Virus record (IMG/VR): IMGVR_UViG_3300022217_000045
Span: 1-26,304 of that record
Direction: 5' to 3' (one strand)
DNA length: 26,304 nucleotides
DNA from: a virus
Taxonomy: Duplodnaviria; Caudoviricetes
Every line of letters begins with the position of its first letter. Within the stretch, counting starts at the first letter, position 1. This document shows positions 4,681 through 26,304 of this stretch, in pieces. The notes under the pieces are model-generated. The model was given only the letters and a program-made list of their open reading frames with translations, was not told the origin of the DNA and ran no database searches. Both the position numbers and the translations under genes were made by a program.

Positions 4681-4681
4681 T

Positions 4682-4882: not shown

Positions 4883-4917
4883 TCTTGAGACATTAAAGAA
4901 TAAATTGGAGGGGAATA

Positions 4918-9056: not shown

Positions 9057-9075
9057 CAACAAAAGGAGGAATAAT

Positions 9076-9741: not shown

Positions 9742-9744
9742 CAT

Positions 9745-9773
9745 TTGCAATTTAAGTAAAGATAGGATATTAT
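9745..9773 (+). promoter_or_regulatory. internal sigma70 promoter upstream of the major capsid gene
   Basis: TTGCAA (9745-9750), 17 bp, TATTAT (9768-9773). Confidence 0.55.
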
Positions 9774-9800
9774 AAACAAGAAATAGGCTTTATGCCACGA

Positions 9801-9912
9801 ATTAACCCCGTTGGGTTCGATGTCTGAAAAACATCGTTAAAAAAGTTTCAGAGTAGGCCAGGTGCCTCGGAAGTGACCGATTCACTAAACTTTTACCCAA
9901 TGGAGAGTTAAT
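9801..9912 (+). promoter_or_regulatory. multi-branched structured 5' leader of the capsid mRNA that sequesters the RBS
   Basis: 9801-9816 pairs 9895-9912; inner stems CGATGT/ACATCG, AAAAGTTT/AAACTTTT, AGGC/GCCT, CGG/CCG. Confidence 0.55.
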
Positions 9913-9913
9913 C

Positions 9914-11047
9914 ATGGCAAATAGTCTTGAAGAAGTAACCCCCGTACTAATCGCGCAGGGTCTTATGGCTTTGCGTGAAAATGCTATTATGCCTCGAATA
10001 GTCAATATGGACTATCAAGACGAGGCAAGAGAAAAAGGTGATGTTGTCAACATCCCTATTCCTTCCGCAGTTGCTGCTACAGATGTAGCGCCAGGACTTG
10101 TACCAACAGCAGGCACAGATGTAATTCCCACAAAAGCTACGGTTGAATTAAATCAGTGGAAAGAAGCTAAGTTCCAGATGACTGATACCGATATCCAGAA
10201 AGCTTTGGATGGTATCATGCCTATGCAAGCAAGTGAGGCTGTCAAATCTCTTGGAAACGCTATTGATAATTATGTCCATAGTCTTTATACAGGGATTTAT
10301 AGTGTGTCAGGTGTTGCTGGTAATACACCTTTCAGCTCAGACTTAACTGAGGGAACATGGGCAAGGAAAAACCTTAATAACAATCTTGCACCTTTAGACA
10401 ATAGGCGTTATGTCCTCGACCCTGACGCAGAAGCTAACTTCTTAAATGTCGCAACCATAATCAATGCAAATCAACGTGGTGATACTGACGGTGTAAGAGA
10501 AGCTTCTATGGGTCGCAAAATTGGTTTTGACTTCTATATGAGTCAGAATGTCACTACCCACGTTAGTACACCATTTACGGCAGGTGCTGTTACTGTTAAT
10601 GGTGCTAATGTCGCTGGTTCAGACACAATATCACTTAATAAAATCACTAATCCGACCGATCTAGTCAAAGGTGACATTCTTACCTTTGCCGGAGATGATC
10701 AGACATATACGGTTACCGCCGATGTAACTTTAATAATTGGTAACACTACTGTCGGTATATCTCCATCTTTGCAAGTAACTACAACAGGTGGCGAAGCAGT
10801 TACATTGACAGCATCACATGTTGTCAATCTTGCTATGCACAGAGATGCTTTTGCACTTGCAACCAGACCACTTTTAGATATTGGTGGCGGACTAGGAAAT
10901 ATCATTCAATCTGCAACCGACCCTGTGACTGGTCTTACATTGAGATTAGAGATAAGCAGGCAACATAAGCAAACACAATTTGCATATGATATATTGTGGG
11001 GTGCAACACTTGTCAGGCCGGAACTAGCTGACAGATCAATGGGATAA
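9914..11047 (+). CDS. major capsid protein (P22 coat-like, HK97 fold)
   Basis: KGDVVNIPIP, GRKIGFDFYMSQNV, NLAMHRDAFALATRPL and YDILWG motifs; central insertion domain. Confidence 0.9.
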   Translation: MANSLEEVTPVLIAQGLMALRENAIMPRIVNMDYQDEAREKGDVVNIPIPSAVAATDVAPGLVPTAGTDVIPTKATVELNQWKEAKFQMTDTDIQKALDGIMPMQASEAVKSLGNAIDNYVHSLYTGIYSVSGVAGNTPFSSDLTEGTWARKNLNNNLAPLDNRRYVLDPDAEANFLNVATIINANQRGDTDGVREASMGRKIGFDFYMSQNVTTHVSTPFTAGAVTVNGANVAGSDTISLNKITNPTDLVKGDILTFAGDDQTYTVTADVTLIIGNTTVGISPSLQVTTTGGEAVTLTASHVVNLAMHRDAFALATRPLLDIGGGLGNIIQSATDPVTGLTLRLEISRQHKQTQFAYDILWGATLVRPELADRSMG

Positions 11048-11053
11048 TGAATC

Positions 11054-11080
11054 AGGGGGGCTTAAAGCCCCCTTTATTTT
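11054..11080 (+). terminator. rho-independent terminator after the capsid gene
   Basis: GGGGGC-TTAAA-GCCCCC followed by TTTATTTT. Confidence 0.8.
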
Positions 11081-11091
11081 AAGGAGATAAT

Positions 11092-11283
11092 ATGTCAAAA
11101 GTAAAGACAGTTAAAGTAATGTGTGAAGGTTTACCGTTTATAGTTATCAACGAAAGTGATCTTACCAGTGATCATACTCTTTATGAAGAAGAAGCTACAG
11201 AAGTTAATAATGCAATCAGTGAAGATGATCAATCTGAAGAAGTTGAGCAACCTAAAAAACGGGGACGTAAGAAACGCACATGA
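11092..11283 (+). CDS. small head-associated protein
   Basis: AAGGAG RBS; INESD motif and basic KKRGRKK tail, typical of the gene after the coat. Confidence 0.7.
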   Translation: MSKVKTVKVMCEGLPFIVINESDLTSDHTLYEEEATEVNNAISEDDQSEEVEQPKKRGRKKRT

Positions 11284-11708
11284 TACCGTATATTACAGAT
11301 ACAGACCTTGCCAAACATGTCCCTGATATTAATGATCATAATCCCCCGTCAAACTGGTCAGATCAAATTCAGTATGGTACGGATGATGTACTTAATAAGA
11401 TCAAAGCGGCATGGTGGCCTCAGGTAACAGACCCTATTTATGAATTAGATGAATCATTACTCAATACTGATGCCTTAGCTAATCTTGCAATATATTGTTG
11501 CTTAGGGTTTTATGCTTTGCCTTACTTGGCTACCGAAAGAGACAAAGATGGTGATTCATTTTCCCGGAAAGCTGAGTATTATAGAGGTAGATATAACGAA
11601 GAATGGGAAGTTGTAAAAGAATTGCCTCTATATGATTTTGATGGGGATACACAATTTGAAGATTCTGAGCGCCAAGGTCCAATTGTAAGGGAGTTAGTAC
11701 GTGGCTGA
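11280..11708 (+). CDS. head-tail adaptor (putative)
   Basis: Position and size; helical; YITDTDL N-terminus. Confidence 0.6.
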   Translation: MIPYITDTDLAKHVPDINDHNPPSNWSDQIQYGTDDVLNKIKAAWWPQVTDPIYELDESLLNTDALANLAIYCCLGFYALPYLATERDKDGDSFSRKAEYYRGRYNEEWEVVKELPLYDFDGDTQFEDSERQGPIVRELVRG

Positions 11709-12147
11709 TAAGGAATCTGCATTAGTAGCTATTAAAACAGAGCTTGAAACGATAACTATAACAAATGGGTATAGCTTTGATATTAAGAAGGTAACAAGAC
11801 AATTCGAAACCATTAAAAATATAGCTGTTACAGATTTTCCTTGTTTAATAATTGAAGACGATGGTGCAGAAGAACTTGATTTTAAAACAGGTGGTTTTGC
11901 TGACATACAAGTAGATATTAATATCATTGGATATGTAAATAACAGGGATAATGTTAGTACTAAACTTAACGAACTTGATAATGCACTTACTAAGGCGATT
12001 TATAGTAACCCGACATTATCCGGGGCCGTTGGTCATGTATCAATTGTGGAAATCAAAGAAAGAAGTGGCTCACAATATAATCCCTACGGATTTTTTGTAA
12101 GACCAATTAAGTTGTTTTATGAAGTTCAATTACCTAACGGACTATAA
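11701..12147 (+). CDS. tail terminator/neck protein (putative)
   Basis: ITITNGY, FPCLII and PTLSG motifs; upstream of the tail tube. Confidence 0.65.
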   Translation: MADKESALVAIKTELETITITNGYSFDIKKVTRQFETIKNIAVTDFPCLIIEDDGAEELDFKTGGFADIQVDINIIGYVNNRDNVSTKLNELDNALTKAIYSNPTLSGAVGHVSIVEIKERSGSQYNPYGFFVRPIKLFYEVQLPNGL

Positions 12148-12157
12148 GAGGTAAATC

Positions 12158-12247
12158 ATGGAAAAGAAATCAGAGCCTAAAAAAAAAGAGGCACCGACTG
12201 TAAAAGCTACAATTAAGAGAAAAATCAAGAAAGGAGGCGATAAATAA
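12158..12247 (+). CDS. 29 aa Lys-rich peptide
   Basis: GAGG RBS, ATG 12158, TAATG coupling to the tube gene. Confidence 0.4.
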   Translation: MEKKSEPKKKEAPTVKATIKRKIKKGGDK

Positions 12248-13161
12248 TGGCTGTAAAATACGATAGAGTACTACTTGCAAAAACAGAAGTTACAAAAGGA
12301 ACAGATGCGGTGCCAGTTGTGGGAAGTGATGCAATAAGATGCCGAACTTTTGATGTTTCCGTAACCCCGGATGTTATTGACAATGTAGCAGTTAAGCAAA
12401 CAATGGGCATGTTGCCACACTTGATAGGTAAAGAGATTATGCAACTTGACGTTGAAATAGCTGTTAAGGGTTCGGGCGCGGCGGGTACAGCTCCGGAATT
12501 CGGGCCATTACTTAAGGCTTGTGGACTGGCTGAAACAGTTACGCCGGCTACATCAGTGGCTTATGACCCGTCATCAGACATTGCAAATCATGACTCAGTA
12601 ACGGTTTATGCTTATAAAGATGGACTTTTATGGAAATTCCTTGGCGCAGTAGGTACAGGCCCGATAACCGTAACGATGAATGAAATCATTACTATTTCGT
12701 TTACTTTGCAGGCTCCTTATTTAGCACCGACAGCCGTAGCAGACCCGGCTGGGGCTGTTTATCAAGCAAGTCAACCTCTAGTGGGTAATAGTAGTGATGT
12801 TGTTAACGATGGTTCGGTTATTAAAGTAGGTACTTTCTCCCTCGACATGGCTAACGACGTACAAGAGCATTATGTTACAGGTGATCATCAATTTGTTGTT
12901 GCAGATAGAGCGCCAGTTTTGACGTTTACAAAAGATTCAGTAGCAACAGCCGCAGAATGGGCAGCTTTATCAGGTGGTACAAACGCTGCTTTGTCCGGTA
13001 CGTTTGGAGCTACGGCAGGCAATATATGCGCGATTACCGCACCCGTAGGAAGACGAGAAACGATAGCTTATGGAGAAAGAGCAGAACGGGATTTACTCGA
13101 TGTAGGTTATCGCTTATATGAGAGTACGGGAGATGATCAATTTCAAATTTTATTTACATAA
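12247..13161 (+). CDS. major tail tube protein
   Basis: LLAKTEVTKGTDAVP and GSGAAGTAPEFGPLLKACGL motifs; position before chaperone and tape measure. Confidence 0.8.
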   Translation: MAVKYDRVLLAKTEVTKGTDAVPVVGSDAIRCRTFDVSVTPDVIDNVAVKQTMGMLPHLIGKEIMQLDVEIAVKGSGAAGTAPEFGPLLKACGLAETVTPATSVAYDPSSDIANHDSVTVYAYKDGLLWKFLGAVGTGPITVTMNEIITISFTLQAPYLAPTAVADPAGAVYQASQPLVGNSSDVVNDGSVIKVGTFSLDMANDVQEHYVTGDHQFVVADRAPVLTFTKDSVATAAEWAALSGGTNAALSGTFGATAGNICAITAPVGRRETIAYGERAERDLLDVGYRLYESTGDDQFQILFT

Positions 13162-13170
13162 AGGAGGATT

Positions 13171-13581
13171 ATGAAGCTATTAGGAACTGACGAAATAGTA
13201 AAGGAAGGTGGGCCTGTTAGATTTACTATGCATCCGGTTACAACAGCAATACAGACTTATTATATGGAATCATCATTAGGTGGAGTGAGTCTTTCTGAAA
13301 ATGTCGAAATAATCCAATATGCTCTTAAAAATGTCATCACAGATATTTGGATTGATGGCAAGACATACAACCCAATAGATTTAGCAGATAGAAGTGATCT
13401 TACAGACGCAACAACGAGGAATATTTTTCTTTTGATTGGACGTTTAGTCATGGAAGAGGTTGTCTTAGGGGCCGAAACTGAAAAAAAGTCCGAGCTGCCG
13501 CAGAAGCTTGGCTCTTCGGCAGACAATGCAGAAAATGTCCCCGCTCAGAAAACGGGCAAAAGCCACAAGAAGGTTGCATAA
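13171..13581 (+). CDS. tail assembly chaperone (G)
   Basis: Between tube and tape measure; contains slippery A AAA AAG at 13482-13488. Confidence 0.8.
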   Translation: MKLLGTDEIVKEGGPVRFTMHPVTTAIQTYYMESSLGGVSLSENVEIIQYALKNVITDIWIDGKTYNPIDLADRSDLTDATTRNIFLLIGRLVMEEVVLGAETEKKSELPQKLGSSADNAENVPAQKTGKSHKKVA

Positions 13582-13796
13582 GTGATTACCCGATAGCCTG
13601 GATACAAGAAATTGAAACGTTAGAATGTCCTGTGCCATGGATAAGAGATTTTGACAAAATATTTACCGCTTATAAATGGAGTAGACACGGCCATTTGCCA
13701 CAAATAGGCGGGGTTTTCGATCAACCAGCAATATTAATGCAGTGTATCCAAATAGTTGAAAGCATAGTGACGAAATGGCAGAAAAACTCAAGATAG
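13488..13796 (+). CDS. tail assembly chaperone -1 frameshift extension (GT, about 208 aa fusion)
   Basis: -1 frame open for 102 codons: VRAAAEAWLFGRQCRKC...GHLPQIGGVFDQP...KNSR*. Confidence 0.8.
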   Translation, partial: VRAAAEAWLFGRQCRKCPRSENGQKPQEGCISDYPIAWIQEIETLECPVPWIRDFDKIFTAYKWSRHGHLPQIGGVFDQPAILMQCIQIVESIVTKWQKNSR

Positions 13797-16090
13797 TCAT
13801 AGAGGGTGACAATAAAAAGGCTAAAAAAGCAGTTTCAGATGTTAATAGTGGTTTAGACACTGTTACTAAAGCATTAGCTAAGTATACAGCGGCAGCGGCA
13901 GTTGCCGGGACTGCTTTTGTTGCATTTAAAAAATCGATTCAAATTACCGCGCAATTTGAGTCTGCGATTTCTGATTTATCGGCTATCACTGGGGCCAGCG
14001 GTGAAGATTTAAAGTTTTTATCTGATGCTGCCAAAGAAATGGGAGCAACTACTACTAAGTCGGCATCAGAAGCAGCGGAAGCAATGAAACTTGTTGCTTC
14101 CGCAAAACCAGATTTATTAGCAAATGCTGATGCGTTAACAAGAGTAACCAAAGAAGCTTTGACTTTAGCAGAGGCAGCAGGCGCAACACTTCCAGAAGCA
14201 GCAAATACTCTTGGTTCATCCCTTAATCAATTTGGTGCGGAAGCAGATCAAGCAGGTAGATTTATTAATGTACTTGCAGCTGGAGCTAAAGAAGGTGCAA
14301 GCGAAATAAATGAAACATCAGCAGCCCTAAAAGAATCTGGCACAGTAGCTAGTGCCGCAGGAATATCTTTCGAATCAGTTAATGCTGCAATACAAGCAAT
14401 GTCTACAGTTGCTATCAAAGGTAGTCAGGCTGGAACAAATCTTAGAAATATTATCCTCAAACTCCAAACCCAGACAGAAGAAGGTTTTAATCCGGCAGTA
14501 GTTGGATTAGAAAAAGCCCTTAAAAATTTACAAGAAGCTAATCTCGATACAACTGAATTAACAAAATTATTTGGTCTTGAAAGTGTTACGGCAGCACAGG
14601 CACTAATTAATCAAGCTGATAATGTTGCTGAATTAACAGACAAATTAACTGATACAAATACTGCTTATGATCAAGCTTCTATAAAGACGGATAATATGGC
14701 TGGCGATATGGCAGCGCTTACATCAGCTATAGAAGGTGCAGCTATTGAATTTGGGGAAGAATTTGGCCCAACAATTAGAGAGGTATTGCAAACAACTACA
14801 GAACTTATTAGAGATTTAACGCCAGTAGCTAAAGCTACAGCTGAGGCGATAGTAGTAGCATTTAAACCTGTTTTACTTACATTCCAAGCAATTGGTGATT
14901 CAATCGATACCTTTCAGGCGGCAGCAGAAGCCTCAGATGCAAAAGTAAAGTCTGTAATTAATGCAACCAAAGCATTCAATAAGGTTTTAAGGCCAAATAG
15001 GGAATTATTAAAAGAACTTGGCGTAAATATAAGGGATATCGACCCTAGAAATGTAGATGCAGTTAACGCTGCTTTATCAGTATTAAACAAGCATGCTGCC
15101 GCGAACAATACAAAACTTATTACAAGAAATACCCTAAATGAAAAATTTATAAAAACGCAAGAACAGATTAAAAAGATAGCTATAGAAACACCAATAGAAC
15201 CAATAGTTGCTGAGCCGCCTAAAGATAAAAAACTAAGTAAAAAAGAAAAAGAAGAACAAGAAAGCATTGAGAAATCTATAGCTGCACAACAAGCAAAGTG
15301 GGATAGGCTTGAACAGATGGCTATCGATAGTCAATTAAACGAAGAAGATAGAGAAATTCAAAGACATGCAAGACAATTAGAAACTATTGAACAAGATAAG
15401 CAACGACTTATCGATTTAGGCGCAAGTGAAGCCGAAATAAGAGCTATGGCACATGAAGCTGAAGTGGCAGAGCAAGTATTGCATAATGTCAGACTTCTGG
15501 AGATTGAAGAGGCCGCTTTAAACCAGCGTAAAGATTTTAGAGACATGACTGATGATGAGAGAATAGCATCATCTAAAGCTATGGCAGGAGAAATACTAGG
15601 GATTGCAGCTGGATTTAACAAAGATGCTTTTATATTGCAGAAAAACATTGCATTAGCTACTACAGCAGTGTCATTACCAACGGCAGTAATAGAGTCATTT
15701 GAGAACGGTGGTGGGTATCCATGGGGGTTAATACCTGCTGCTTTAATGGCGGCAAGGGGCGCGGCTGAGATAGCAACAATAACAGGAACATCATATACAG
15801 GACAAGCACATGCCGGATTAGATACAGTTCCGGAAGATGGTACTTTTCTTTTAAGACGTGATGAAATGGTGTTAGACCCAGGAACATCAAGCGCAGTTAG
15901 AAACGCTGCAATAAATGCAGCATCACCACAAAAAATGGGGCATACATTTAACTTTAATTTTGAAATAAATAACCCTTTATCAATACAGAATTGGAAGGAA
16001 ATTATAGAAGAAGATATTGCCCCACGAATGATTGACGCTGTTAGAAAAGGGATTGATTTCGGACTACAACCAGAGGAGAAATTTGCATGA
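13775..16090 (+). CDS. tail tape measure protein (TP901-like)
   Basis: 771 aa, Ala-rich helical; IKGSQAGTNLRN and LFGLE motifs. Confidence 0.93.
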   Translation: MAEKLKIVIEGDNKKAKKAVSDVNSGLDTVTKALAKYTAAAAVAGTAFVAFKKSIQITAQFESAISDLSAITGASGEDLKFLSDAAKEMGATTTKSASEAAEAMKLVASAKPDLLANADALTRVTKEALTLAEAAGATLPEAANTLGSSLNQFGAEADQAGRFINVLAAGAKEGASEINETSAALKESGTVASAAGISFESVNAAIQAMSTVAIKGSQAGTNLRNIILKLQTQTEEGFNPAVVGLEKALKNLQEANLDTTELTKLFGLESVTAAQALINQADNVAELTDKLTDTNTAYDQASIKTDNMAGDMAALTSAIEGAAIEFGEEFGPTIREVLQTTTELIRDLTPVAKATAEAIVVAFKPVLLTFQAIGDSIDTFQAAAEASDAKVKSVINATKAFNKVLRPNRELLKELGVNIRDIDPRNVDAVNAALSVLNKHAAANNTKLITRNTLNEKFIKTQEQIKKIAIETPIEPIVAEPPKDKKLSKKEKEEQESIEKSIAAQQAKWDRLEQMAIDSQLNEEDREIQRHARQLETIEQDKQRLIDLGASEAEIRAMAHEAEVAEQVLHNVRLLEIEEAALNQRKDFRDMTDDERIASSKAMAGEILGIAAGFNKDAFILQKNIALATTAVSLPTAVIESFENGGGYPWGLIPAALMAARGAAEIATITGTSYTGQAHAGLDTVPEDGTFLLRRDEMVLDPGTSSAVRNAAINAASPQKMGHTFNFNFEINNPLSIQNWKEIIEEDIAPRMIDAVRKGIDFGLQPEEKFA

Positions 16091-17523
16091 GTATAGGTGG
16101 CAAAGTTACATTATTGGCAGATAATCAAGTCCCTGTCTTTACTCCAACGAGTGAGGCAACAGGATTTGAAGCAACACATTTGACGGATGGTAATGAAACA
16201 ACAATCTGGAAACCAACCGGGTTCACAACACAGACATTGACATATGATATTGGGGTGCCTTTGATATCAAGCTTTGCAACTTCTGTATTTGATGTAAGTG
16301 CGACATCTCCAAATGGGATTTCCTATGCCCCTGATGGCACTCTATGGATTGTTGATACCGCTACTGACAAAGTTTATAATATTACGCAAACAGGGACATT
16401 AATATCTTCTTTTCTTACTTCTATATTTGATGCAAGCGCAACTGATACTGCAGGGATAAGCTATGCTTCTGATGGTACTTTATGGGTATGTGATGTTATC
16501 ACAAATAAAATATACAACATTGAATTAGATGGCACATTAATATCTTCTTTTGCCACCTCTGTCTTTGATGCAAGTGCAGTAGCACCAAAGGGGATTACTT
16601 ATGCCCTTGACGGCACTTTATGGATATGTGATGTTATCACAAATAAAATTTACAATGTTGAATTAGATGGCACATTAATATCTTCTTTTGCCACCTCTGT
16701 CTTTGATGCAAGTGCAGTAGCACCCAATGGCGTATCCTATGCACTTGATGATACTTTATGGATTAGTGATTTTTTTACGGATAAGATTTACAATATTGAA
16801 ACTGATGGCACATTAATAACCTCTTTTGCCACCTCTGTCTTTGATGCAAGTGCAAAACAGCCTGCCGGAATTTCCTACGCCCCTGATGGCACTCTATGGA
16901 TATGTGATATTGTTACGGATAAGATTTACAATATCAAGGAAATGCTTGCCTTTGACAGCCTCTTTCTATCAGGCCATAATCTCAACACTGTAGGTGCTGA
17001 AATCTTATGGCAGTATTCTGATAATGGCTCTACTTGGGTAGATATTAACTACCCTTTCTCTCCTGCTAATGATAAGAGCATAGGGGTAAGACTTGATGCC
17101 ATGCGTACAACTCGTGCAGTGAGAGTGCAATTATCATCCATGACAGCCCTCCCTTATATAGCCAACCTAATTATCACAAAGCAGTCAGAAATTGATTATG
17201 CTGGGCTATATGACCCACATAGGACTCGTATAGAGCGCACAGTCAATAAGACGCTTCATGGCCAAGTTTCAGACGTTACAGAGTACTACCGGGAAAGGAT
17301 CCTTACCTTGACTTTTGCTACTGTTAATGACCCAACATATAAAAAGATCAAGAGGTATTTTGATAATCACGCCTCAGATATTATTGGTGTTTATTGGGAG
17401 CCTGAATTCCATCAAGACGACGTATGGCCTATGACGTTAGATAGTGATGAGCTTAATGCGCCATTTGTTGTATCTGGAGTTACTAGAAGTGTAACTATAC
17501 AATTGCGCGGGGTAGAGGAATGA
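16087..17523 (+). CDS. distal tail (Dit-position) protein with a discoidin-like domain interrupted by a five-repeat beta-propeller
   Basis: Directly after tape measure; LTDGNETTIW...YDIG and FDSLFLSGHNL...QYSDNGSTW flank five 46-aa repeats. Confidence 0.7.
   Translation: MSIGGKVTLLADNQVPVFTPTSEATGFEATHLTDGNETTIWKPTGFTTQTLTYDIGVPLISSFATSVFDVSATSPNGISYAPDGTLWIVDTATDKVYNITQTGTLISSFLTSIFDASATDTAGISYASDGTLWVCDVITNKIYNIELDGTLISSFATSVFDASAVAPKGITYALDGTLWICDVITNKIYNVELDGTLISSFATSVFDASAVAPNGVSYALDDTLWISDFFTDKIYNIETDGTLITSFATSVFDASAKQPAGISYAPDGTLWICDIVTDKIYNIKEMLAFDSLFLSGHNLNTVGAEILWQYSDNGSTWVDINYPFSPANDKSIGVRLDAMRTTRAVRVQLSSMTALPYIANLIITKQSEIDYAGLYDPHRTRIERTVNKTLHGQVSDVTEYYRERILTLTFATVNDPTYKKIKRYFDNHASDIIGVYWEPEFHQDDVWPMTLDSDELNAPFVVSGVTRSVTIQLRGVEE
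16261..16935 (+). repeat. five tandem 138-bp (46 aa) coding repeats
   Basis: Unit LISSFATSVFDASAxxPxGISYAxDGTLWICDxxTDKIYNIxxDGT; 67 bp identical at 16520-16586 and 16658-16724. Confidence 0.92.
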
Positions 17524-20444
17524 TCACTCTTCCTGCTGCTTTTGAAGCTGCCAACAAAAAGAAACAACAAACTCCATCAACATTAGTACTGCTAGAGACA
17601 AGTGAACTCAAGGCAGAGAAAAAGACTGAAACAGATTGGGGCAACAATGTTGCTGAGAATGAAGTTGACTATACATCAATCCCTGGAAATGTAATACTCA
17701 ACACAACTTTATGGCTAAGCGGAGGACATGGTGGAAATGCATACATTTATAATGTTGAGAGGGATGGAACTCTTATAACTTCATTCCTTACTTCAACATA
17801 TGATGCAGCATCAACGAGTCCTGGAGGGATAGGATATGGCTATGACGATACACTTTGGATAATTGATGCAAATTCAAACAAAGTATATAACGTCACCACT
17901 GCTGGAACATTTATATCATCATTCAGCGTTGCAATATATAATTCTCCATTTGGGCTATCATGTGATCCAAATGGAACATTGTGGATAGTAGATTCATCAA
18001 CAAATATTGTCTATAACTTAACCACAACAGGGTCAGTAATAAGTAGCTTTTCTGTTACTGCTGGAGTCACTGGTCTCTTCGTATCCCCAGCAAGAACATT
18101 ATGGATGTGCGATAAAACAACTAATACTATATACCATAGAGAGAATGATGGAACCCTTATAAATTCTTTTGCAACATCCGTATTTGATGCAAGCGCAACT
18201 AGTGTTGAAGGCATTGGCTTAAGCAATGTAAATACATTGTGGATAGCTGATTCTAATACAAGGAAAATCTACAATGTCACAATAAAAGGTGCACTACTAG
18301 ATAGTTGGCTGAATACAAGCTTTGGCCCATCAGGAACATTAGTTCTTGGATTATCTTGTAGGCCATATTATTCTCTATTTGGCAATATCACAACAGACAA
18401 CCTAGACCTTGGTTCAACTCCTACAGTTCCAGGTGAATGGCAGATTGGTGACTCTAGGGTTGCTGGTGGTGCTTTGTGGGTATCTGATGAATCAACAGAT
18501 AAAATCTACAGCATAACAACTTCAGGTAGATTAAGGGATTTGTTTCCAACATCTGTCTTCGATGCAAGTGCAACTGCACCAAAGGGCATTTCATATGCAC
18601 CTAACGGTACTTTATGGATATGTGATTCTGCTACAGACAAAATATATAATATTGAGCCCGATGGTACTTTAATCACTTCTTTTGCTACATCTGCATTTGA
18701 TGCAAGTGCAATTTTACCAGCGGGTATTAGCTTTTCCTCAGATGGTACTCTTTGGATTTGTGATGTTATAACAAAAAAAATCTATAACGTAACAACAACA
18801 GGGACATTAATTAGTTCATTTTTAACTTCTGTATTTGATGTAAGTGCGACATCTCCAAATGGGATTTCCTATGCCCCTGATGGCACTCTATGGATATCGG
18901 ATATAGTTACTGACAAGATTTACAATGTTACCACTACAGGAACATTAATTTCATCTTTTGCGACGTCAGTATTTGATGCAAGTGCAACACAACCCACGAG
19001 CGTACATTACGCCCCAGATGGCACATTATGGATATGTGATGCTAATACAGATAAAATTTACAATGTTGAATTAGATGGCACATTAATATCTTCTTTTGCC
19101 ACCTCTGTCTTTGATGCAAGTGCAGTAGCACCCCAAGGCGTAAGCTCTTTTCAGATGGGTTCTATTGCTTATGAAGCATGGGGGAGTGCAACTGGAGCTT
19201 TTGCAGGAGAGGAAACCTATCTTGGTGTTATAGAAGATGGCGACGAAATAACACAACTATTCAGGTACTACAGGGTCAAGGCAAGATTATCGTCAAGCAA
19301 TGATAGGGCTGATACGCCAAGGCTGCAAAGCATAGTAGCAAGTTTTGTGACATTTACTAAGCTAACAGACACAAAAGGGCTTGGATATAATGTTACTGTG
19401 TCTGGAGTATCTTCTTTGACTACTAAGATCGATATGTTTAAATCCTCAACTATAGGCGAAATAAGTGTTGATGCTTTTTTTAATCAAGAAATGTCAACAT
19501 ATTTTAGTATCCCTAGAAAAAACAGATTAGTAAAAGTCTTTCAAGGTTTTGCAGGATTGGCAGAATCAGATTACATTAGTTATTATTACGGTATAATAGG
19601 TAATGCCCCAATAAAAACAGATGAAACAATTACCATTACTATTGATGATTATACCGCTACATGGTCAAAGCCAATACCTGCAAAATGGGAGACTGTTGCA
19701 GATGATGTTGAATGGGCTGGCGTTCACCCAATAGACGTGCTCCTTGATATATTCAAAAATCACCTTGATGTGCGTGATAGCTTTATTGACCATGCTGCTT
19801 TTGATACAGTTAGAGCTGCTCACGCTGGATGGATAGTCTCAAGGAAAATAACAGGGAATACTGAAAGGACAGATGTTTTAATTAATGAATTGAGGCAGCT
19901 AATGTCATGCTTCTTAATTCCTCAGCCAGATGGTAAAGTATCAATTAAGCAGTTTGATGCTACAGCAGCAGCAGTTGCCTCAATCAGTGATGATGACTTT
20001 ATAGCAGCACCCGGTCTTTCCTATGACCCTCAATATAGTGAGTTGATCAATAGATTCACAACATATTATGGATGGGATGGCGCTGGAGACGATCTTGAAA
20101 ATTATGCTGGATTAGATGATTACACTAATAGCACATCAGTGACTGCATGGAAAGAGGAAAGATTTGAAGTCGTCAAAGATAAGTGGACAGCATTAGCCAA
20201 CACATCACAAGTCACAGCAAGAAGGACAGTATTGGATGGAATATATGGCAATGCCCCTGTCTTGTTGACTGGCAAGCTTTCTCGCAGGTTAGTGGCTCTT
20301 GAAGCTGGCGACGTAGTTGAGATTACTATTGATCGATATCCAAAAGCTTCAGGCTTTGGAATAACTAATAAGAAATTTCTTTTAATTAAGCGTAATTATA
20401 ACTACAATAAAGGTGATATATCAGTTTCATTTTTAGAACTTTAA
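17520..20444 (+). CDS. tail tip/hub (Tal-position) protein with two five-repeat beta-propellers
   Basis: 974 aa; C-terminal hub-like HPIDVLLDI, DGKVSIK and LEAGDVVEI motifs; repeat blocks about 17706-18365 and 18471-19151. Confidence 0.75.
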   Translation: MITLPAAFEAANKKKQQTPSTLVLLETSELKAEKKTETDWGNNVAENEVDYTSIPGNVILNTTLWLSGGHGGNAYIYNVERDGTLITSFLTSTYDAASTSPGGIGYGYDDTLWIIDANSNKVYNVTTAGTFISSFSVAIYNSPFGLSCDPNGTLWIVDSSTNIVYNLTTTGSVISSFSVTAGVTGLFVSPARTLWMCDKTTNTIYHRENDGTLINSFATSVFDASATSVEGIGLSNVNTLWIADSNTRKIYNVTIKGALLDSWLNTSFGPSGTLVLGLSCRPYYSLFGNITTDNLDLGSTPTVPGEWQIGDSRVAGGALWVSDESTDKIYSITTSGRLRDLFPTSVFDASATAPKGISYAPNGTLWICDSATDKIYNIEPDGTLITSFATSAFDASAILPAGISFSSDGTLWICDVITKKIYNVTTTGTLISSFLTSVFDVSATSPNGISYAPDGTLWISDIVTDKIYNVTTTGTLISSFATSVFDASATQPTSVHYAPDGTLWICDANTDKIYNVELDGTLISSFATSVFDASAVAPQGVSSFQMGSIAYEAWGSATGAFAGEETYLGVIEDGDEITQLFRYYRVKARLSSSNDRADTPRLQSIVASFVTFTKLTDTKGLGYNVTVSGVSSLTTKIDMFKSSTIGEISVDAFFNQEMSTYFSIPRKNRLVKVFQGFAGLAESDYISYYYGIIGNAPIKTDETITITIDDYTATWSKPIPAKWETVADDVEWAGVHPIDVLLDIFKNHLDVRDSFIDHAAFDTVRAAHAGWIVSRKITGNTERTDVLINELRQLMSCFLIPQPDGKVSIKQFDATAAAVASISDDDFIAAPGLSYDPQYSELINRFTTYYGWDGAGDDLENYAGLDDYTNSTSVTAWKEERFEVVKDKWTALANTSQVTARRTVLDGIYGNAPVLLTGKLSRRLVALEAGDVVEITIDRYPKASGFGITNKKFLLIKRNYNYNKGDISVSFLEL
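17706..19151 (+). repeat. two blocks of five propeller-blade repeats
   Basis: Ten (T/A)LW...IYN...G repeats; first block diverged, second close to those in the upstream gene. Confidence 0.88.
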
Positions 20445-20455
20445 TGGAGGTTATT

Positions 20456-20854
20456 ATGAAAAAAATATTAGTATTGTTTATAGTATTACTTACGGGTACA
20501 GCTTATGCGGCAAATACAACGTATATTTTAATGCAGAATAAAAGAACGGTAGGACCAGGTACGACAAAGACTGTTAATAATGCTTATGATTCTTGGGGCT
20601 GCGACGTTTTGACTTTTGGAAATATGAGTGCTGTAACTATACGAATTGAAGGCAATCAAGGTGGTACAATCTTTGACCCCGAAGGGATGCAGACTCATAC
20701 AATGACATTTGCTAATCATTCATCACAATTAAAAGCGGGCATTGGGTCTTTTGAAATTACTTCACATGTTGTTAAACAAATTAGGGGTTATCTTGTGTCA
20801 TTATCGGGAGGTGTAGACCCCAGAGCAACTGTAAGATGTACTGGAAAGGAATAA
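20456..20854 (+). CDS. signal-peptide-bearing beta-rich protein
   Basis: GGAGG RBS favours ATG 20456; MKKILVLFIVLLTGTAYA signal peptide. Confidence 0.7.
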   Translation: MKKILVLFIVLLTGTAYAANTTYILMQNKRTVGPGTTKTVNNAYDSWGCDVLTFGNMSAVTIRIEGNQGGTIFDPEGMQTHTMTFANHSSQLKAGIGSFEITSHVVKQIRGYLVSLSGGVDPRATVRCTGKE

Positions 20855-20855
20855 A

Positions 20856-21338
20856 ATGAAAAAATTATTCATATTAAATATAATATTTTTTATCTGTCTA
20901 ATTGCTACGCCATCATTTGCATTTAATGTTTATGGTGAAGCATGGAAACTTGAAAATCATATTATTAAGCCTGGAGATGGAACCCAAGGAATAGAATTTA
21001 CAAATTTTAGCACTATACGTTTAAATGGTTTAATGGTCGGTTTTAGAAATTTGTCTAGCACGTCAGAAACCATAACAACCGCTGACTATCTCATTACTTG
21101 TCTTGCTAATGATAATGGAGTGACTCTTAATTTGCCGCCTGTCAGTACTAAGTCACAAATAATAAAAGTTAAATATGTCGATTCAGGGTCTACAAATAAA
21201 TGCTATTTAGATGGCAATGCCTCAGAGCAAGTCGAAGGATTTGACGTTTATAGCGGATTAGATACGTTTCGAGAGGGCCGCATATTGGAATCAGACCCTG
21301 CAAGAGCAAGCTGGTGGATAACAGGAGGTTGGCAATGA
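20856..21338 (+). CDS. signal-peptide-bearing tail-fibre-like protein
   Basis: MKKLFILNIIFFICLIATPSFA; C-terminal VTLNLP...IKVK...DGNASEQVEG...WWI domain of a type seen in phage fibre/baseplate proteins. Confidence 0.65.
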   Translation: MKKLFILNIIFFICLIATPSFAFNVYGEAWKLENHIIKPGDGTQGIEFTNFSTIRLNGLMVGFRNLSSTSETITTADYLITCLANDNGVTLNLPPVSTKSQIIKVKYVDSGSTNKCYLDGNASEQVEGFDVYSGLDTFREGRILESDPARASWWITGGWQ

Positions 21339-22759
21339 GATATTTAATTTTACTTTTACTACTACCTGTTTTAGCTTTTGCTGATGCTCCGGCATGGGAA
21401 ACTACGCCGAATGGTACAAAAATGAAAGAACCGATCAAACATGAAGCTGAGTCATTATGGGATACAGAAGTAGGTGAAGTTACTGGACTACATGGAGTTC
21501 ATACCCATGTCTATGGCGCTGAAACATGTACGGTAAATGAAAGAACATCTTCATTTGCTTTAGTATCTACAACATTTAGCATTTATCCATGTACTGTGCA
21601 TATTGATGGCCCTGTTTATGATCTTAATACAACTGTTTTTCCTCAGATAACATCAATTACATTGAAATTTAGTTCTGCATTTGTTGGTGCTACAATGAAC
21701 GGTTACACTCAACAAGATAATTTTTTTACTGATGAGGATTTGGAAACGGTGATACCGTTAGCTAGAATCCAGCAACAAGCAGACGGTACTTTATCGATAA
21801 TTGATCAACGTGATATTATTACCGGAGCTGATAAAAAGAGTCATAAATACAAACGCGGTGCTATTGGTTCTCCTATGAGCTTGGATGGTGGATTGATACC
21901 AGTTGAAACCGGAACCAGAAATATTAATCTTATTGAAGGATCCTTTTATGATGAGGAAGGTGATAGGCATGATTTACCAACGTTCAACTTATTATCAACA
22001 ATACCGCTTTGGCGCACAACAAGCTCTTTTGATTCTTGGACTACAACAGGCAAAGAAGTTTTTCAATTAGATAATGTGTTTTACAATGATGTATCAACTG
22101 GAGGCCTTGTTGCCGCTTTAAATCCTACTAAGTTTATATATCAATTATTAGCTTGCTCTCCAGAAGGCGGAACTGTTAGAGGAGTAGATACCGGGCGGAA
22201 ACCAACATGCTTTGCTATTTATGGCCCCGATGAATATGATAGTCTGGAGGCTGCAAGAACATCTAATGTTGATCTTGGAAGTTTTGCAGAGTCAAAACCT
22301 AGATTGATTATTATTGCTAAAATAATTACAACAAAAAATAATGGCACAATTATTGATGTCTGGGATGAGCGTAGATTTCTCACAACTCCAACAGGCTCTT
22401 CCGTTTCTATACCATCTACAGCATCATTACAAACTACATATAATAATAGCCCAAATGGTGGCATAGCCGAGATAATTACAAATGATGTAAATGAAGCGCT
22501 TACTATTAAGCATGGCGATATTGGGGTTGACCCAAAAACCTTTGAAGTAGAGCTTGATGACGGTACTGATTTATTTGGGGTTTATACTACTCACATTAAC
22601 ATGGCATTTAGTAACGGCACGTCAGTGGTATTTGATAATTGGACTGGCACAGATGAGACAGGTATATTGATTCGTAAAAATGGTGCCGTAAGTAGGGTGT
22701 CTTTAGATTCGGCTGATTCATGCGGTTCTGGATTTCGATGTTTAAGAACAACTAATTAG
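21335..22759 (+). CDS. signal-peptide-bearing tail-fibre/receptor-binding-like protein
   Basis: AGGAGG RBS favours ATG 21335; MRYLILLLLLPVLAFA; C-terminal ADSCGSGFRCLRTTN resembles the ADSGGSGFRxLRVPN end motif of phage fibres. Confidence 0.65.
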   Translation: MRYLILLLLLPVLAFADAPAWETTPNGTKMKEPIKHEAESLWDTEVGEVTGLHGVHTHVYGAETCTVNERTSSFALVSTTFSIYPCTVHIDGPVYDLNTTVFPQITSITLKFSSAFVGATMNGYTQQDNFFTDEDLETVIPLARIQQQADGTLSIIDQRDIITGADKKSHKYKRGAIGSPMSLDGGLIPVETGTRNINLIEGSFYDEEGDRHDLPTFNLLSTIPLWRTTSSFDSWTTTGKEVFQLDNVFYNDVSTGGLVAALNPTKFIYQLLACSPEGGTVRGVDTGRKPTCFAIYGPDEYDSLEAARTSNVDLGSFAESKPRLIIIAKIITTKNNGTIIDVWDERRFLTTPTGSSVSIPSTASLQTTYNNSPNGGIAEIITNDVNEALTIKHGDIGVDPKTFEVELDDGTDLFGVYTTHINMAFSNGTSVVFDNWTGTDETGILIRKNGAVSRVSLDSADSCGSGFRCLRTTN

Positions 22760-22764
22760 AGGAG

Positions 22765-23025
22765 ATGAAATTGAAAAAGTTTATATTGATATTGGTAATT
22801 TTACTGTTTGCAGGTTCGGCAATAGCTGCGGAGATATGTTTTAACGTAACGGCGGCAAATGATACCAGGGCAGGAAAGCAAGCCACACGCAAGGGTATTA
22901 CTAAATCAGAGCTAGCCCGTAGATCGTTACTTAATGCCATGGACTACAATACAGCTATTAGACAGCAAGATGTTTTATTTACACACATGACAGCTATTTG
23001 TAATACGTATGAATGTGACGATTGA
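22765..23025 (+). CDS. small secreted protein
   Basis: MKLKKFILILVILLFAGSAIA signal peptide. Confidence 0.65.
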   Translation: MKLKKFILILVILLFAGSAIAAEICFNVTAANDTRAGKQATRKGITKSELARRSLLNAMDYNTAIRQQDVLFTHMTAICNTYECDD

Positions 23026-23270
23026 TTTATGAGATAATCATGCCAAACATTGACGAGTCTTCTGAAGCAATTGGTTCACTGAGAGCATCAGTTAAAAATA
23101 TCGATAATACTCAAAGAGATATTCTCAAAGAAATTAAGGGAATGCGGGAAGATATCGTTATACAGAAAGTGAATTCTGCACGGAATGCGGGGAAGATGGG
23201 CGTGATAACAGCAATAGGAACCTTTGGATTTTTTGAAGGATTAAAATATTTAATAAAACTCAAATCATGA
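23022..23270 (+). CDS. coiled coil plus C-terminal TM protein (lysis region, holin/XhlA-like)
   Basis: Coiled coil then hydrophobic helix; real start may be ATG 23040. Confidence 0.6.
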   Translation: MIYEIIMPNIDESSEAIGSLRASVKNIDNTQRDILKEIKGMREDIVIQKVNSARNAGKMGVITAIGTFGFFEGLKYLIKLKS

Positions 23271-23449
23271 AAGGGGCTAATATGAGAATTTGGGAATATT
23301 TGAGCGGAAAGAAAACAGTTATTGCAGCTATATTGAAAGCTATAGCAGATGTATTGACTGCAACCGGTTATCAAGAAATTGCACAAGTAGTCGATCAAGC
23401 AGGAAATGCTTTGCTTGCTGTTGGCCTAACACATAAAGCTGTAAAATAG
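23267..23449 (+). CDS. putative small holin
   Basis: GKKTVIAA...LLAVGLTHK pattern; last gene before the terminator; start may be ATG 23282. Confidence 0.55.
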   Translation: MKGANMRIWEYLSGKKTVIAAILKAIADVLTATGYQEIAQVVDQAGNALLAVGLTHKAVK

Positions 23450-23810: not shown

Positions 23811-24194
23811 TTATGAATTTAATTTGATATCAACTAAATGACTTACTAATTGATTATGTACTTTAGCAATGCAGTTAATATTGGTTATCAAATCATAACC
23901 GTCGGAATCTTCACCTATTCTTTTACCAGTATATATCCAACAACCAATCAAATTATCTTTCATTTTTAAAAAATTATATTCGGTGATTCTTCTTGCTAAC
24001 CAATTATCTTCTAATACCCAATCTTTTTCAATTTGTACTGATGATAAACCTTCATGGATTCCGCCGTTTAAATAATCTCTACTGTTTTTTTGTTTCATGT
24101 CTTTTGCAGGGCCCCGAGAAAAACGAACAAACAGCGTATCTTGACTTTCAGTGATTATTTTTTTTAAATTGCTAATTGTTTTTATTGTTTTCAT
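23811..24194 (-). CDS. DUF6098-like protein
   Basis: LFVRFSRGPAKD...SRD...GLS...WLARRITEY...W...G...GEDSDG pattern; GGGAG RBS. Confidence 0.6.
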   Translation of the reverse strand: MKTIKTISNLKKIITESQDTLFVRFSRGPAKDMKQKNSRDYLNGGIHEGLSSVQIEKDWVLEDNWLARRITEYNFLKMKDNLIGCWIYTGKRIGEDSDGYDLITNINCIAKVHNQLVSHLVDIKLNS

Positions 24195-24239: not shown

Positions 24240-24245
24240 AGTCTG

Positions 24246-24258
24246 TAAAGCGTTGATT
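24246..24258 (-). promoter_or_regulatory. IHF binding site
   Basis: Minus strand AATCAA-CGCT-TTA matches WATCAANNNNTTR, just upstream of the -24 box. Confidence 0.65.
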
Positions 24259-24290
24259 TAACAGGCTTTTTTATTTCATATGCAATAAAT

Positions 24291-24425: not shown

Positions 24426-24464
24426 AACATTGTGATATTAAGAATTAATTCCTAATATCGTTAG

Positions 24465-24686
24465 TTATAATTTGTACTGCCTACAATGCCTTATGACGTT
24501 TAGGCAGTCAGGGCATGTAATACGCTTTCTTGGTTCTTGGCCGGAACTATAGCCCCATTCTTCACAAGCGACACCACAAAGAGTAAATTCTGGATCAAAT
24601 GACAGACCATGTGAACGCTTAAAAAAATTATCGTCTTCCGGTAAACAATCACTTTGTTTATTGTCTTTCGGTTTAAATATATACAT
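24465..24686 (-). CDS. cassette 1 ORF: zinc-binding phage protein (H...TLCG...ITCPDC)
   Basis: ORF track 24465..24698; ATG 24686 or TTG 24698; stop lies within GTTA 24464. Confidence 0.7.
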   Translation of the reverse strand: MYIFKPKDNKQSDCLPEDDNFFKRSHGLSFDPEFTLCGVACEEWGYSSGQEPRKRITCPDCLNVIRHCRQYKL

Positions 24687-24688
24687 AA

Positions 24689-24753
24689 TTATAACCAACC
24701 GTCAGAGCTGGATTGCGGAAACAGCCCCGCAACCACTCAACTCCACGTTAGCG
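24689..24753 (+). repeat. attC-like site 1 (65 bp)
   Basis: TTATAAC-N5-GTCAGAGC...TTGCGG/CCGCAA stem...ACTCAAC-N5-GTTAGCG. Confidence 0.75.
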
Positions 24754-24999
24754 TGCTATCCTCATTTTCCATTCAAAATGCTTTAATAGTCTTTCCCACT
24801 CATTTTTCGGGATAGCAATTGTTTCAGTCCCATGCTTTCTATAATATTGTAATGTGTTTCCTTTTATTGGAGTAGGGATAAGAAATAATTGTTCAATATC
24901 CCCGTTTGGCAGTCCTACCCAATACCTATGCCCTTCAGTTAGTTGTCTCATTTCACTAGGTAGCATTACTTCTCTCCTCTTCTTAATAATCCAGCACAC
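24748..24999 (-). CDS. cassette 2 ORF: hypothetical protein
   Basis: ORF track; AGGAG RBS favours the internal MLPSEM start; stop lies within GTTA 24747. Confidence 0.6.
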   Translation of the reverse strand: MCWIIKKRREVMLPSEMRQLTEGHRYWVGLPNGDIEQLFLIPTPIKGNTLQYYRKHGTETIAIPKNEWERLLKHFEWKMRIAR

Positions 25000-25074
25000 T
25001 AACCAACTAATGCACTCTGACCGCCAACACTCATTTCATTCACTTATGTTGGCAGGTGATCGTCCTTGTTATAA
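24997..25074 (+). repeat. attC-like site 2 (78 bp)
   Basis: CACTAAC-N5-AATGCACT...GCCAACA/TGTTGGC...GGTGATC-N6-GTTATAA. Confidence 0.8.
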
Positions 25075-25266
25075 AGCCTTGTTTTTTATTGATCTCTCTT
25101 TAAGTTCAGCCATTGAATTTGCCTCATAATGGCTTAAAACTATTCGCATTGCATCATCCCATCCTTTTGAATATTCCTCGCTTATTTCCTTGAAAGCCTT
25201 GCAATTACCTATAGAGGCTTTAACCGCTTTTTTTATCATTTCAAGTTTCAATTCAGCTTCCATCAA
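25069..25266 (-). CDS. cassette 3 ORF: hypothetical protein
   Basis: GAGGTG RBS; EYSKGWDDA motif; stop lies within GTTA 25068. Confidence 0.6.
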   Translation of the reverse strand: MMEAELKLEMIKKAVKASIGNCKAFKEISEEYSKGWDDAMRIVLSHYEANSMAELKERSIKNKAL

Positions 25267-25293
25267 TCACCTCTTCTTTAAAGTCATCGGGCT

Positions 25294-25352
25294 TTATAAC
25301 CCGTCGTTCAAAATTCGACCGTTAACACGGCGTTTTAACTCAATCGTTATGT
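25294..25352 (+). repeat. attC-like site 3 (59 bp)
   Basis: TTATAAC-CCGTC-GTTCAAAA...TTTTAAC-TCAATC-GTTATGT; canonical extra base in L''. Confidence 0.85.
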
Positions 25353-25559
25353 GTATTCAAATACAGGCTGATTTCTTTTATTATATCCTTTGAAGTAAAA
25401 AGCCACTGTGACGCCAAATGGTCCTTCAACTTTGTCCTCTGGTCTCACTCTCAAGTCAAGAGGCGGTGTTATTGCCATTTCAAACATTCCTATATATACA
25501 AAATATCCTGAAATATCAACTTCTTTTGTCCATCCGTCTAACATTACTATTGCTTTCAA
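25347..25559 (-). CDS. cassette 4 ORF: hypothetical protein
   Basis: AGGAGG RBS, TTG start; stop lies within GTTA 25346. Confidence 0.65.
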   Translation of the reverse strand: MKAIVMLDGWTKEVDISGYFVYIGMFEMAITPPLDLRVRPEDKVEGPFGVTVAFYFKGYNKRNQPVFEYT

Positions 25560-25575
25560 AATATCCTCCTTTTCC

Positions 25576-25637
25576 AGATAACCATGCGCTGCACTTGGAA
25601 ACGGCTTACGCCGTTCCAGTGATCTTGTTTGTTAGCC
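25576..25637 (+). repeat. attC-like site 4 (62 bp)
   Basis: AGATAAC-N5-GCTGCACT...ACGGC/GCCGT...AGTGATC-N6-GTTAGCC. Confidence 0.8.
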
Positions 25638-25859
25638 GCCACATAATTTAATAAGTTCGCCTATTCCAGCATTAGCTTTAGCGGCTCTATAATCAATATA
25701 TTCTTGTGTTGTTTGCAATCGTCCCTGCATTCTCTTCCTGTCACACGATAAAGCCTCCCACCGTTCACGCCACCTATGAAGAACTTTATAGCGGCTAACC
25801 ATGCGCTGCTTTTCGACGGCAGTTAGCTCCTTCTTCTCGCTTTGTGCATCTTCTTTCAT
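25632..25859 (-). CDS. cassette 5 ORF: hypothetical protein starting inside attC 5
   Basis: GGGAGG RBS inside the attC; stop lies within GTTA 25631. Confidence 0.55.
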   Translation of the reverse strand: MKEDAQSEKKELTAVEKQRMVSRYKVLHRWRERWEALSCDRKRMQGRLQTTQEYIDYRAAKANAGIGELIKLCGG

Positions 25860-25913
25860 CAGTCGTTTCCTCCCTTGTTATGTCTCAAGCCGCGCAAGAG
25901 CTTTTTGTTATAA
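25793..25913 (+). repeat. attC-like site 5 (long, 121 bp)
   Basis: GGCTAAC-CATGC-GCTGCTTT...CAAGAGC-TTTTT-GTTATAA; shares TAACCATGCGCTGC with site 4. Confidence 0.7.
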
Positions 25914-26099
25914 AACTTCTATGCTTATAAAGTCTTCCTTTGATTTGGCTTTTATTTCTTCGCAGAATTCCTTGCTTCCTAGCTGGTGTGTGAAAATTGG
26001 CCCTTCCATTATTTCTTCAATGTATTCGTGCATGTCTGAAAAATCTCCTATCAAAACGCCTGTAAATGCACTTACAATCGCTGCCTCTCTTTTCGTCAT
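25908..26099 (-). CDS. cassette 6 ORF: conserved small phage protein (MTKREAAIVSAFTG...PIFTH)
   Basis: GGAGG RBS; motif resembles a widespread small phage protein family; stop lies within GTTA 25907. Confidence 0.7.
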   Translation of the reverse strand: MTKREAAIVSAFTGVLIGDFSDMHEYIEEIMEGPIFTHQLGSKEFCEEIKAKSKEDFISIEVL

Positions 26100-26126
26100 T
26101 GCAATGTCCTCCGTAAGATAAAAGTT

Positions 26127-26184
26127 TTATAACCCACCATTCCAGGCGACCGCTATCGCGGCTCCTGAATTTAATTGGTTGGGT
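26127..26184 (+). repeat. attC-like site 6 (58 bp)
   Basis: TTATAAC-CCACC-ATTCCAGG...CCGC/GCGG...CCTGAAT-N7-GTTGGGT; L''/L' pair perfectly after removing one base. Confidence 0.8.
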
Positions 26185-26186
26185 TG

Positions 26187-26303
26187 CTAGTTGTCCCAAC
26201 AACGGCACTCTCTTTTATACACATTTGTAGTTTCTGGCAAGGAACACAGCGGGCATACCATTACATCGTTTGGATATGTTGCCGGTTTGTACCAATCCCC
26301 ACG
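26187..26303 (-). CDS. cassette 7 ORF, partial (3' end; CPLC...CRC)
   Basis: Open frame from the window edge: RGDWYKPATYPNDVMVCPLCSLPETTNVYKRECRCWDN*. Confidence 0.5.
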   Translation of the reverse strand, partial: RGDWYKPATYPNDVMVCPLCSLPETTNVYKRECRCWDN

Positions 26304-26304
26304 T

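Follow-up and report, generated by a model that had tools for sequence, protein, structure and literature searches.

Integrons are tools of bacteria, and two recent preprints describe them as reservoirs of genes directed against phages (bioRxiv 10.1101/2024.07.02.601686 and 10.1101/2024.07.02.601719). Their integrase, IntI, excises and inserts gene cassettes via the folded bottom strand (PMC5027507 and PMC8946536). Phages carry attC sites as well, and Qi, Rajabal, Ghaly, Tetu and Gillings (2023) report 17 clusters of attC sites lacking an integron integrase (CALINs) in 10,705 phage genomes, with IntI1 recombining the attC bottom strands at five of the six phage sites tested (PMC9892861). The locus described here is a cassette array at 24464-26304 of the virus record IMGVR_UViG_3300022217_000045 (Caudoviricetes), and the window is the whole of this linear record, 26,304 bases with a completeness rating of 43%. 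The array is real, CALIN-like and of integron type, with mirror-image cassettes, and it is not a complete integron. At least seven small phage genes are held in it as swappable integron-type cassettes, opposite in facing to typical bacterial ones. We consider it quite probable that an IntI, likely provided in trans by the host, assembled and reshuffled this phage array of at least seven inverted cassettes, with likely an attI at its head.

The published phage clusters resemble the array in being groups of attC sites without intI and in carrying small genes and DNA methyltransferases as cargo; the window array adds an attI-like head and a cassette shared between unrelated phages. The main text of PMC9892861 describes the clusters of TJE1 and PH101 as typical and is silent on inverted genes, and its figures and Dryad annotation may show orientation. 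In our own scan of TJE1 the genes and the attC top strand lie on the same strand, whereas here they are inverted; for PH101, a scan of the first 45 kb out of 132 kb did not turn up the cluster. In MW202573, a member of that set, the scanner places attC-like sites opposite the annotated genes, and the inverted form may sit unremarked in the set as an unconfirmed candidate. A sequence-only reading of the window had set the phage location beside integron integrases described mainly from chromosomes and plasmids: the array does lie on a phage, but attC clusters in phages had already been published and tested with IntI1. The unusual features are the inversion of the genes and the attI-like site at the left end, both absent from that reading.

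Canonical integrons share with the array the attC anatomy, the extra base of the left arm, the G^TT crossover, a single head junction without attC and a more stable bottom strand (PMC5027507). The array differs from them in that the window has no intI and the genes lie on the bottom strand, so that the cassette promoter Pc at attI could not express them; the ribosome-binding site, sometimes with the start codon, is in or beside attC, and the stop codon is in R' rather than in R''. Backward insertion of whole cassettes by top-strand recombination, as described in PMC5027507, also leaves a gene antisense to its array, but there the attC flips with the gene, whereas here attC polarity is constant and the gene is reversed inside the cassette. 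The inverted-integrase integrons, with intI on the attC strand (PMC13323075), are likewise a variant of integron orientation; there intI is turned relative to attC, here the cassette genes are, and two phage integrons keep intI on the usual strand. A literature search that took in few subscription journals and only the main text of preprints returned nothing on cassette genes turned against attC, on arrays with an attI head but no integrase, or on phages sharing cassettes.

Mirror-image cassettes and their attC sites

The six attC-like hairpins named in the sequence-only reading are confirmed by their coordinates and by a custom scanner. Their R'' boxes start at 24689, 24997, 25294, 25576, 25793 and 26127, with AAC at 24693, 25001, 25298, 25580, 25797 and 26131 and the closing GTT at 24747, 25068, 25346, 25631, 25907 and 26178. 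All six follow the attC grammar (R'' with AAC, a 5-nt spacer, an 8-nt L'', a 7-nt L', a 5-7-nt spacer and R' with GTT), the L'-R' spacers being 5, 6, 6, 6, 5 and 7 at sites 1-6, and their L arms have 5.5-7 of 7 positions paired. The scanner for this grammar, run over 24401-26304, returned all six on the + strand and two weaker matches on the - strand, and none of 300 dinucleotide shuffles yielded three or more matches; its threshold was chosen with the sites already known, and a stricter earlier version recovered three of the six. Since the rest of the window holds 5 scattered + and 10 scattered - matches at the same threshold, single scanner matches mean little. An Rfam scan gave nothing within the array, and a first attC pattern of 16 bases was rejected after 42 matches, many of which were not attC sites. 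Six attC sites in the same orientation lie within 1.5 kb, the hallmark of a CALIN, with no PF00589 match in the 24 kb to the left and with the right side ending with the contig.

It had also been claimed that the GTT end opening each cassette is the reverse complement of the AAC end of its own attC, and the quoted matches are correct (9/9, 10/11, 11/11, 8/10, 9/9 and 12/12 for cassettes 1-6). When 12 nt are compared, every cassette start finds its best match in its own R'', and the observed sum is reached by 1 of 720 permutations. End matching is symmetric and uninformative on polarity, so polarity was tested separately. The + strand is the attC top strand, because the extra base fits the left arm (L'') better at five of six sites, with one tie, because the bottom (-) strand has a fold energy below that of the top in 11 of 12 forms and equal to it in one, and because the junction without attC is the left end of the array. 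Compared with shuffles, the hairpins have z values of -1.9 to -3.6 at sites 1, 4 and 6 and of -1.3 to -1.5 at site 2. attC4 (25576-25596) and attC5 (25793-25813) open alike (TAACCATGCGCTGC), with 18 of 21 bases in common. Unusually long inverted repeats at the ends of phage cassettes were considered as a feature and dropped, the median run being 8 in the viral and bacterial sets alike.

All six whole genes, and the truncated seventh, lie on the - strand, which is the attC bottom strand, and none of the six cassettes follows the usual layout, in which the gene precedes its own attC on the top strand. Every stop codon of the six is a TAA complementary to the TTA just after the crossover G, and five of the six genes have a clear ribosome-binding site. 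Cassette 1 (24465..24747, 283 bp, with attC1 at 24689-24753) carries a gene of 73 aa at 24465-24686, or 77 aa if read from a TTG at 24698, that belongs to phrog_15583, of unknown function. The next three genes match no family: that of cassette 2 (24748..25068, 321 bp, attC2 24997-25074) encodes 72 aa at 24748-24966 behind a GAGGAG ribosome-binding site, that of cassette 3 (25069..25346, 278 bp, attC3 25294-25352) encodes 65 aa at 25069-25266, and that of cassette 4 (25347..25631, 285 bp, attC4 25576-25637) encodes 70 aa at 25347-25559 behind AGGAGG. In cassette 5 (25632..25907, 276 bp, attC5 25793-25913; gene 25632-25859, 75 aa) the ribosome-binding site and the ATG are inside the long attC5 loop, so the left arm of the hairpin falls in the translated region. 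Cassette 6 (25908..26178, 271 bp, attC6 26127-26184) carries a gene of 63 aa at 25908-26099 that matches DUF7736 and phrog_13999. Relatives of this gene occur at 34 other viral loci with no attC visible in the examined flanks, and on its family match it is an ordinary phage gene in cassette form; as DUF7736 is found both free and in cassettes, the origin of cassettes becomes testable. Cassette 7 (26179..26304), truncated by the contig end, holds the 3' part of a Cys-rich gene at 26187-26304.

The same facing was found well beyond the window. One attC pattern applied to two collections located 69 viral loci and at least 145 genome loci, of which 48 viral loci supplied 144 distinct cassettes and 56 genome loci supplied 184; this sample rests on the single pattern and weights related contigs equally. 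The top strand is purine-poor in 140 of 144 viral cassettes versus 69 of 184 bacterial ones. The strand of the genes was judged by family matches, longest-ORF (open reading frame) calling having been misled by antisense frames in GC-rich loci. The longest frames of the viral cassettes have PHROG matches on the bottom strand in 36 of 139 cases, nine of them DNA methyltransferases, versus 0 of 131 on the top strand, and among 70 bacterial cassettes picked at random from the 184, Pfam matches fall on the top strand in 17 cases and on the bottom strand in one, a transposase. By these matches, inversion of the gene against attC is the rule among the viral cassettes sampled. The median cassette body is 478 bases in the bacterial set versus 303 in the viral set. 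The inverted cassettes of two viral loci, L082 and L110, carry an RNA ligase and a queuine tRNA-ribosyltransferase. In two genome loci, L200 and L180, the cassettes are short and several have a purine-poor top strand, which sets them apart from most bacterial arrays; a top-strand BrnA match in L200 means that the cassettes of these two loci are not simply inverted.

The head of the array and the source of the integrase

Before the first cassette lies a likely attI-type site (24442..24466, + strand), made of an 18-bp motif at 24442-24459, four free bases, the crossover G at 24464 and TT; a 16-bp near-palindrome at 24439-24454 overlaps the motif. Outside cassettes 6 and 7, the motif is the sole 18-mer common to the window and locus L350, which belongs to a second phage, G056. 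It stands 22 bases from the first G^TT, in the same register, in both phages. A search with a 19-base motif pattern gave G056 as the only other record of the viral_contigs collection, and a relaxed scan gave 38 viral loci, with a well-matched cassette after the motif in G056 alone and a weak 7-base match 1.6 kb off at one other locus. More generally, CTA is found at -9 from the first G at 15 of 31 viral first junctions versus 83 of 10186 GTT sites (0.8%), the 31 being picked automatically and including near-duplicates and some attC sites that the scanner missed. The recurrence in fixed register makes the 18-bp motif with the first G^TT a likely attI-type site.

An alternative, which we regard as improbable although it deserves the most attention among those considered, is that the 18-bp motif serves a shared host regulator as operator or promoter element rather than as attI, and that the first cassette entered a generic GTT. 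The palindrome has a 2-bp centre, unlike a recombination core, and no match to the motif stands beside a bacterial intI in the genomes and loci searched; yet the motif keeps a constant distance to the first G^TT, whereas the next start codon is about 250 bases away in the window and about 57 in L350. Promoter-like matches number 10, with 10.5 expected by chance, and the cassette genes are antisense to any attI promoter. By eye, TTGACA and TATAAG separated by 17 bases occur at 24347-24375 on the + strand, some 90 bases left of the first G^TT, although the promoter scan does not list them; the position is Pc-like, and such a promoter would transcribe antisense to the cassette genes.

That no integrase is in view, as the sequence-only reading held, is borne out by zero matches to PF00589, the tyrosine recombinase family, in the 43%-complete contig; G056 has no match either. 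The DUF6098 gene (23811..24194, - strand) sits at the intI position of a complete integron, and Pfam and NCBIfam find no recombinase there. Among 50 of 56 candidate array-bearing viral records that were searched, six have a PF00589 match, and of the 13 rated at least 90% complete two have one and 11 have no tyrosine recombinase. A true IntI is present in two of the 50 (TIGR02249, 468 and 475 bits, with a cut-off of 265), and both phage-borne intI genes, at L296 and L297, lie just left of the first G^TT in the same direction as the inverted genes. IntI thus accompanies the inverted architecture, yet most phages with such arrays are without their own, which points to supply by the host or by a co-infecting element. 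For the window phage the host source is what we infer, and the gene may instead lie in the missing part of the genome. One of the two phages with intI, G022 (L296, and L323 and L324), is 99% complete and has its intI beside an ordinary integrase; it has a second array elsewhere, with a CTA-type first junction and without intI.

These records also bear on the possibility, unlikely in our judgment, that the phage serves itself, by an IntI or related tyrosine recombinase encoded in the unsequenced part or by one that stood next to the attI-like site until its recent loss. In favour of it, the contig is rated 43% complete, 2 of the 50 array-bearing viral records have an IntI adjoining the first cassette, and a non-coding stretch of 270 bp lies left of the attI-like site together with part of a methylase gene. 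Against it, the intI position is within the window and occupied by the DUF6098 gene, G056 has no PF00589 match and has a methyltransferase and small genes at that position, and 11 of 13 near-complete array-bearing records are without such an enzyme.

Movement of cassettes at G^TT

The sequence-only reading proposed integron-type cassettes exchanged at G^TT, and the strongest agreement comes from cassette 7, which recurs from its crossover G in G056. A record of sequencing run X1, a sediment metagenome and the run that best covers the window record, carries 26178-26304 behind different sequence, its loose end being the crossover G at 26178. A 24-base query from cassette 7 found one other viral record, G056, in which 9997-10123 of L350 are identical to all 127 bases from G 26178, behind a different attC. 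The shared cassette is the start of the fourth G056 cassette and begins at the + strand G, leaving the attC to its left behind. Between the window and 12.5 kb of L350, blastn finds just the 127 bases and a 31-base piece; the whole 17.6-kb G056 record adds the first-junction motif alone, with zero tblastx matches outside the array. G056 has baseplate hub and wedge genes and an inverted array of its own, with eight cassettes with matched ends and the start of a ninth. By these comparisons G056 is unrelated to the window phage, and it is present in the same run X1. In X1 the shared record has a depth of 100, roughly the sum of the depths of the window contig (23) and the other upstream contig (69).

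Movement bounded by G^TT is exact at the left boundary of cassette 7, and cassettes 1-6 were not found in another neighbourhood. Comparison of further phages for breaks at G^TT, as that reading had suggested, agrees in part: of 12 more viral locus pairs, four break at or near G^TT. L060 and L066 share 251 identical bases from GTT to GTT, L081 and L114 match from GTT to GTT, L084 and L098 match to within 3 and 13 bases, and L101 and L117 stop at GTT. It is likely, on these shared sequences, that phages trade accessory genes by integron recombination with a host-borrowed integrase.

A 31-base block with a ribosome-binding site and R'' is identical between 26105-26135 of the window and 12331-12361 of L350, where it belongs to a different gene and a different attC interior; it may be a trace of cassette making from a common end piece. 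One cassette of G056 is a radical SAM gene and the sixth holds three genes. Two DNA methyltransferase genes lie left of its first junction, and the L350 spans 6606-7791 and 10277-11125 cover these and the radical SAM cassette.

We think it very unlikely that the array was built by IntI but is now inert, its cassettes passing by homologous or illegitimate recombination via short similar ends. The phage has Erf and RecE-like genes, attC3 and attC5 fold weakly, and the 31-bp piece with ribosome-binding site and R'' is shared with a different G056 gene at a join that is not at G^TT. Yet the left edge of the shared cassette is the crossover G itself, and the unrelated sequence preceding it offers no upstream homology to recombine on; its identity of 100% indicates recent transfer, and all six end pairs are intact.

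In the preferred explanation, by which a likely host-supplied IntI builds and reshuffles the array, the enzyme would bind the folded bottom strand and excise the cassette as a circle, R'' being paired with the cassette's own start. The circle would then enter a second phage genome in the same cell, at the attI-like site or at an attC. The array would be transcribed from a phage promoter past its right end, towards attI, with the ribosome-binding site of each cassette beside or inside attC, and the newest cassette would be the most distant one from that promoter, opposite to the Pc arrangement. Inversion would likely be kept because it aligns the cassette genes, and any intI, with phage transcription, and because a host cassette arriving in the normal orientation would lie antisense and stay silent. 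Were the genes to run with replication, the bottom strand would also lie on the lagging template, which raises recombination (PMC8946536).

A number of observations weigh against this explanation. The folding of attC3 and attC5 is no better than that of shuffles (z from -0.6 to +0.9), and in the most stable structure of attC4 the R boxes stay open. A noisier test of inversion, by how open reading frames fill the cassettes, gave 63 of the 144 viral cassettes on the bottom strand only, 15 on the top only, 30 on both and 36 on neither, compared with 11 bottom, 83 top, 15 both and 75 neither for the bacterial ones. As to attI, the window motif has CTA at -12, outside the common viral register of -9; the 18-bp motif is absent from all 401 genomes searched from the phylum to which G054 (Ca. 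Electrothrix aarhusensis) belongs, where intI is present in 48 of 121 genomes examined, and from the 11 first junctions obtained from 37 intI loci examined; and CTA at -9 is found at 0 of these 11 bacterial first junctions, or at one if the better L345 junction is used. The missing share of the genome, estimated at 57%, may contain an integrase. The visible part of the shared cassette 7 is its left boundary and 127 bases only, the other eight of the 12 pairs are near-identical copies or within-gene matches that do not break at G^TT, and no circle junctions are among the run contigs matching the window, contigs being a form in which rare forms drop out.

A broader proposal, which we hold only tentatively and as somewhat less probable than its negation, is that phages run their own cassette pool, with phage genes in mirror-image cassettes docked at host-specific attI sites on integrase-free genomes and traded by host IntI among unrelated phages that infect one host. 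The reversed polarity would silence host defence cassettes in the phage and phage cassettes in the host. If this were true, the polarity of cassette making would be set by the donor replicon, giving a handle on the question of cassette origin. If the preferred explanation holds, it would give unrelated phages a site-specific means of exchanging small accessory genes and DNA methyltransferases in mosaic fashion, and two co-occurring unrelated phages with an identical cassette and a candidate attI are defined test substrates.

The phage around the array

The array segment is phage DNA and no chimeric join, a doubt raised in the sequence-only reading, because tailed-phage genes are on the contig, because a 7105-bp contig from X1, which may be the source sample, covers 23400-26207 with zero differences, and because a 151-bp record from a separate study, X2, crosses the 26178 junction with a short side of 32 bases. 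The array continues beyond the contig end, and the window probably stops at cassette 7 because this cassette is a repeat. A bacterial integron fragment, picked up by the phage or attached to it by an assembly error, is largely refuted as the source of the array: the same attC type does occur in many bacterial arrays (at least 145 loci) and the contig end falls inside a repeat, but bacterial cassettes of this attC type are canonical in facing and longer, the cargo matches phage families, tail genes run into the array identically in an independent assembly, and a record from another study spans the last junction.

The phage genes on the + strand comprise an Erf-like annealing protein and a RecE-like exonuclease (1638-3040) and, outside the array, a head and tail module at 3917..23449 with terminase, portal, scaffold, major head protein, tail terminator and tape measure. 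The window phage is probably of siphovirus type, because there is no sheath or baseplate family among the 40 window proteins scanned. A terminator-like hairpin at 23495-23514 bounds the head-tail module; past it, at about 23.5 kb, the GC skew reverses, and the genes after that point are on the - strand.

No relatives of the window phage were found in viral_contigs via the DUF6098 gene. The major head protein has relatives at five loci, with 38-64% identity and no array in their available DNA, and the top relatives of the terminase carry no host name. In a blastn search of 23400-26304 against 50,697 phage records there were just five short matches. On the - strand, 23626-23708 looks like a 3'-terminal piece of a DNA methylase gene from a phage, with 82% identity over 83 bases to Sinorhizobium phage phiM6; this fragment has no in-frame start, and comparable pieces are present in several sequencing runs. 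A tRNA-like match of 45.6 bits is found at 1352-1435, and two large proteins of the tail region (16087-20444) contain beta-propeller repeats of NHL and Vgb-lyase type.

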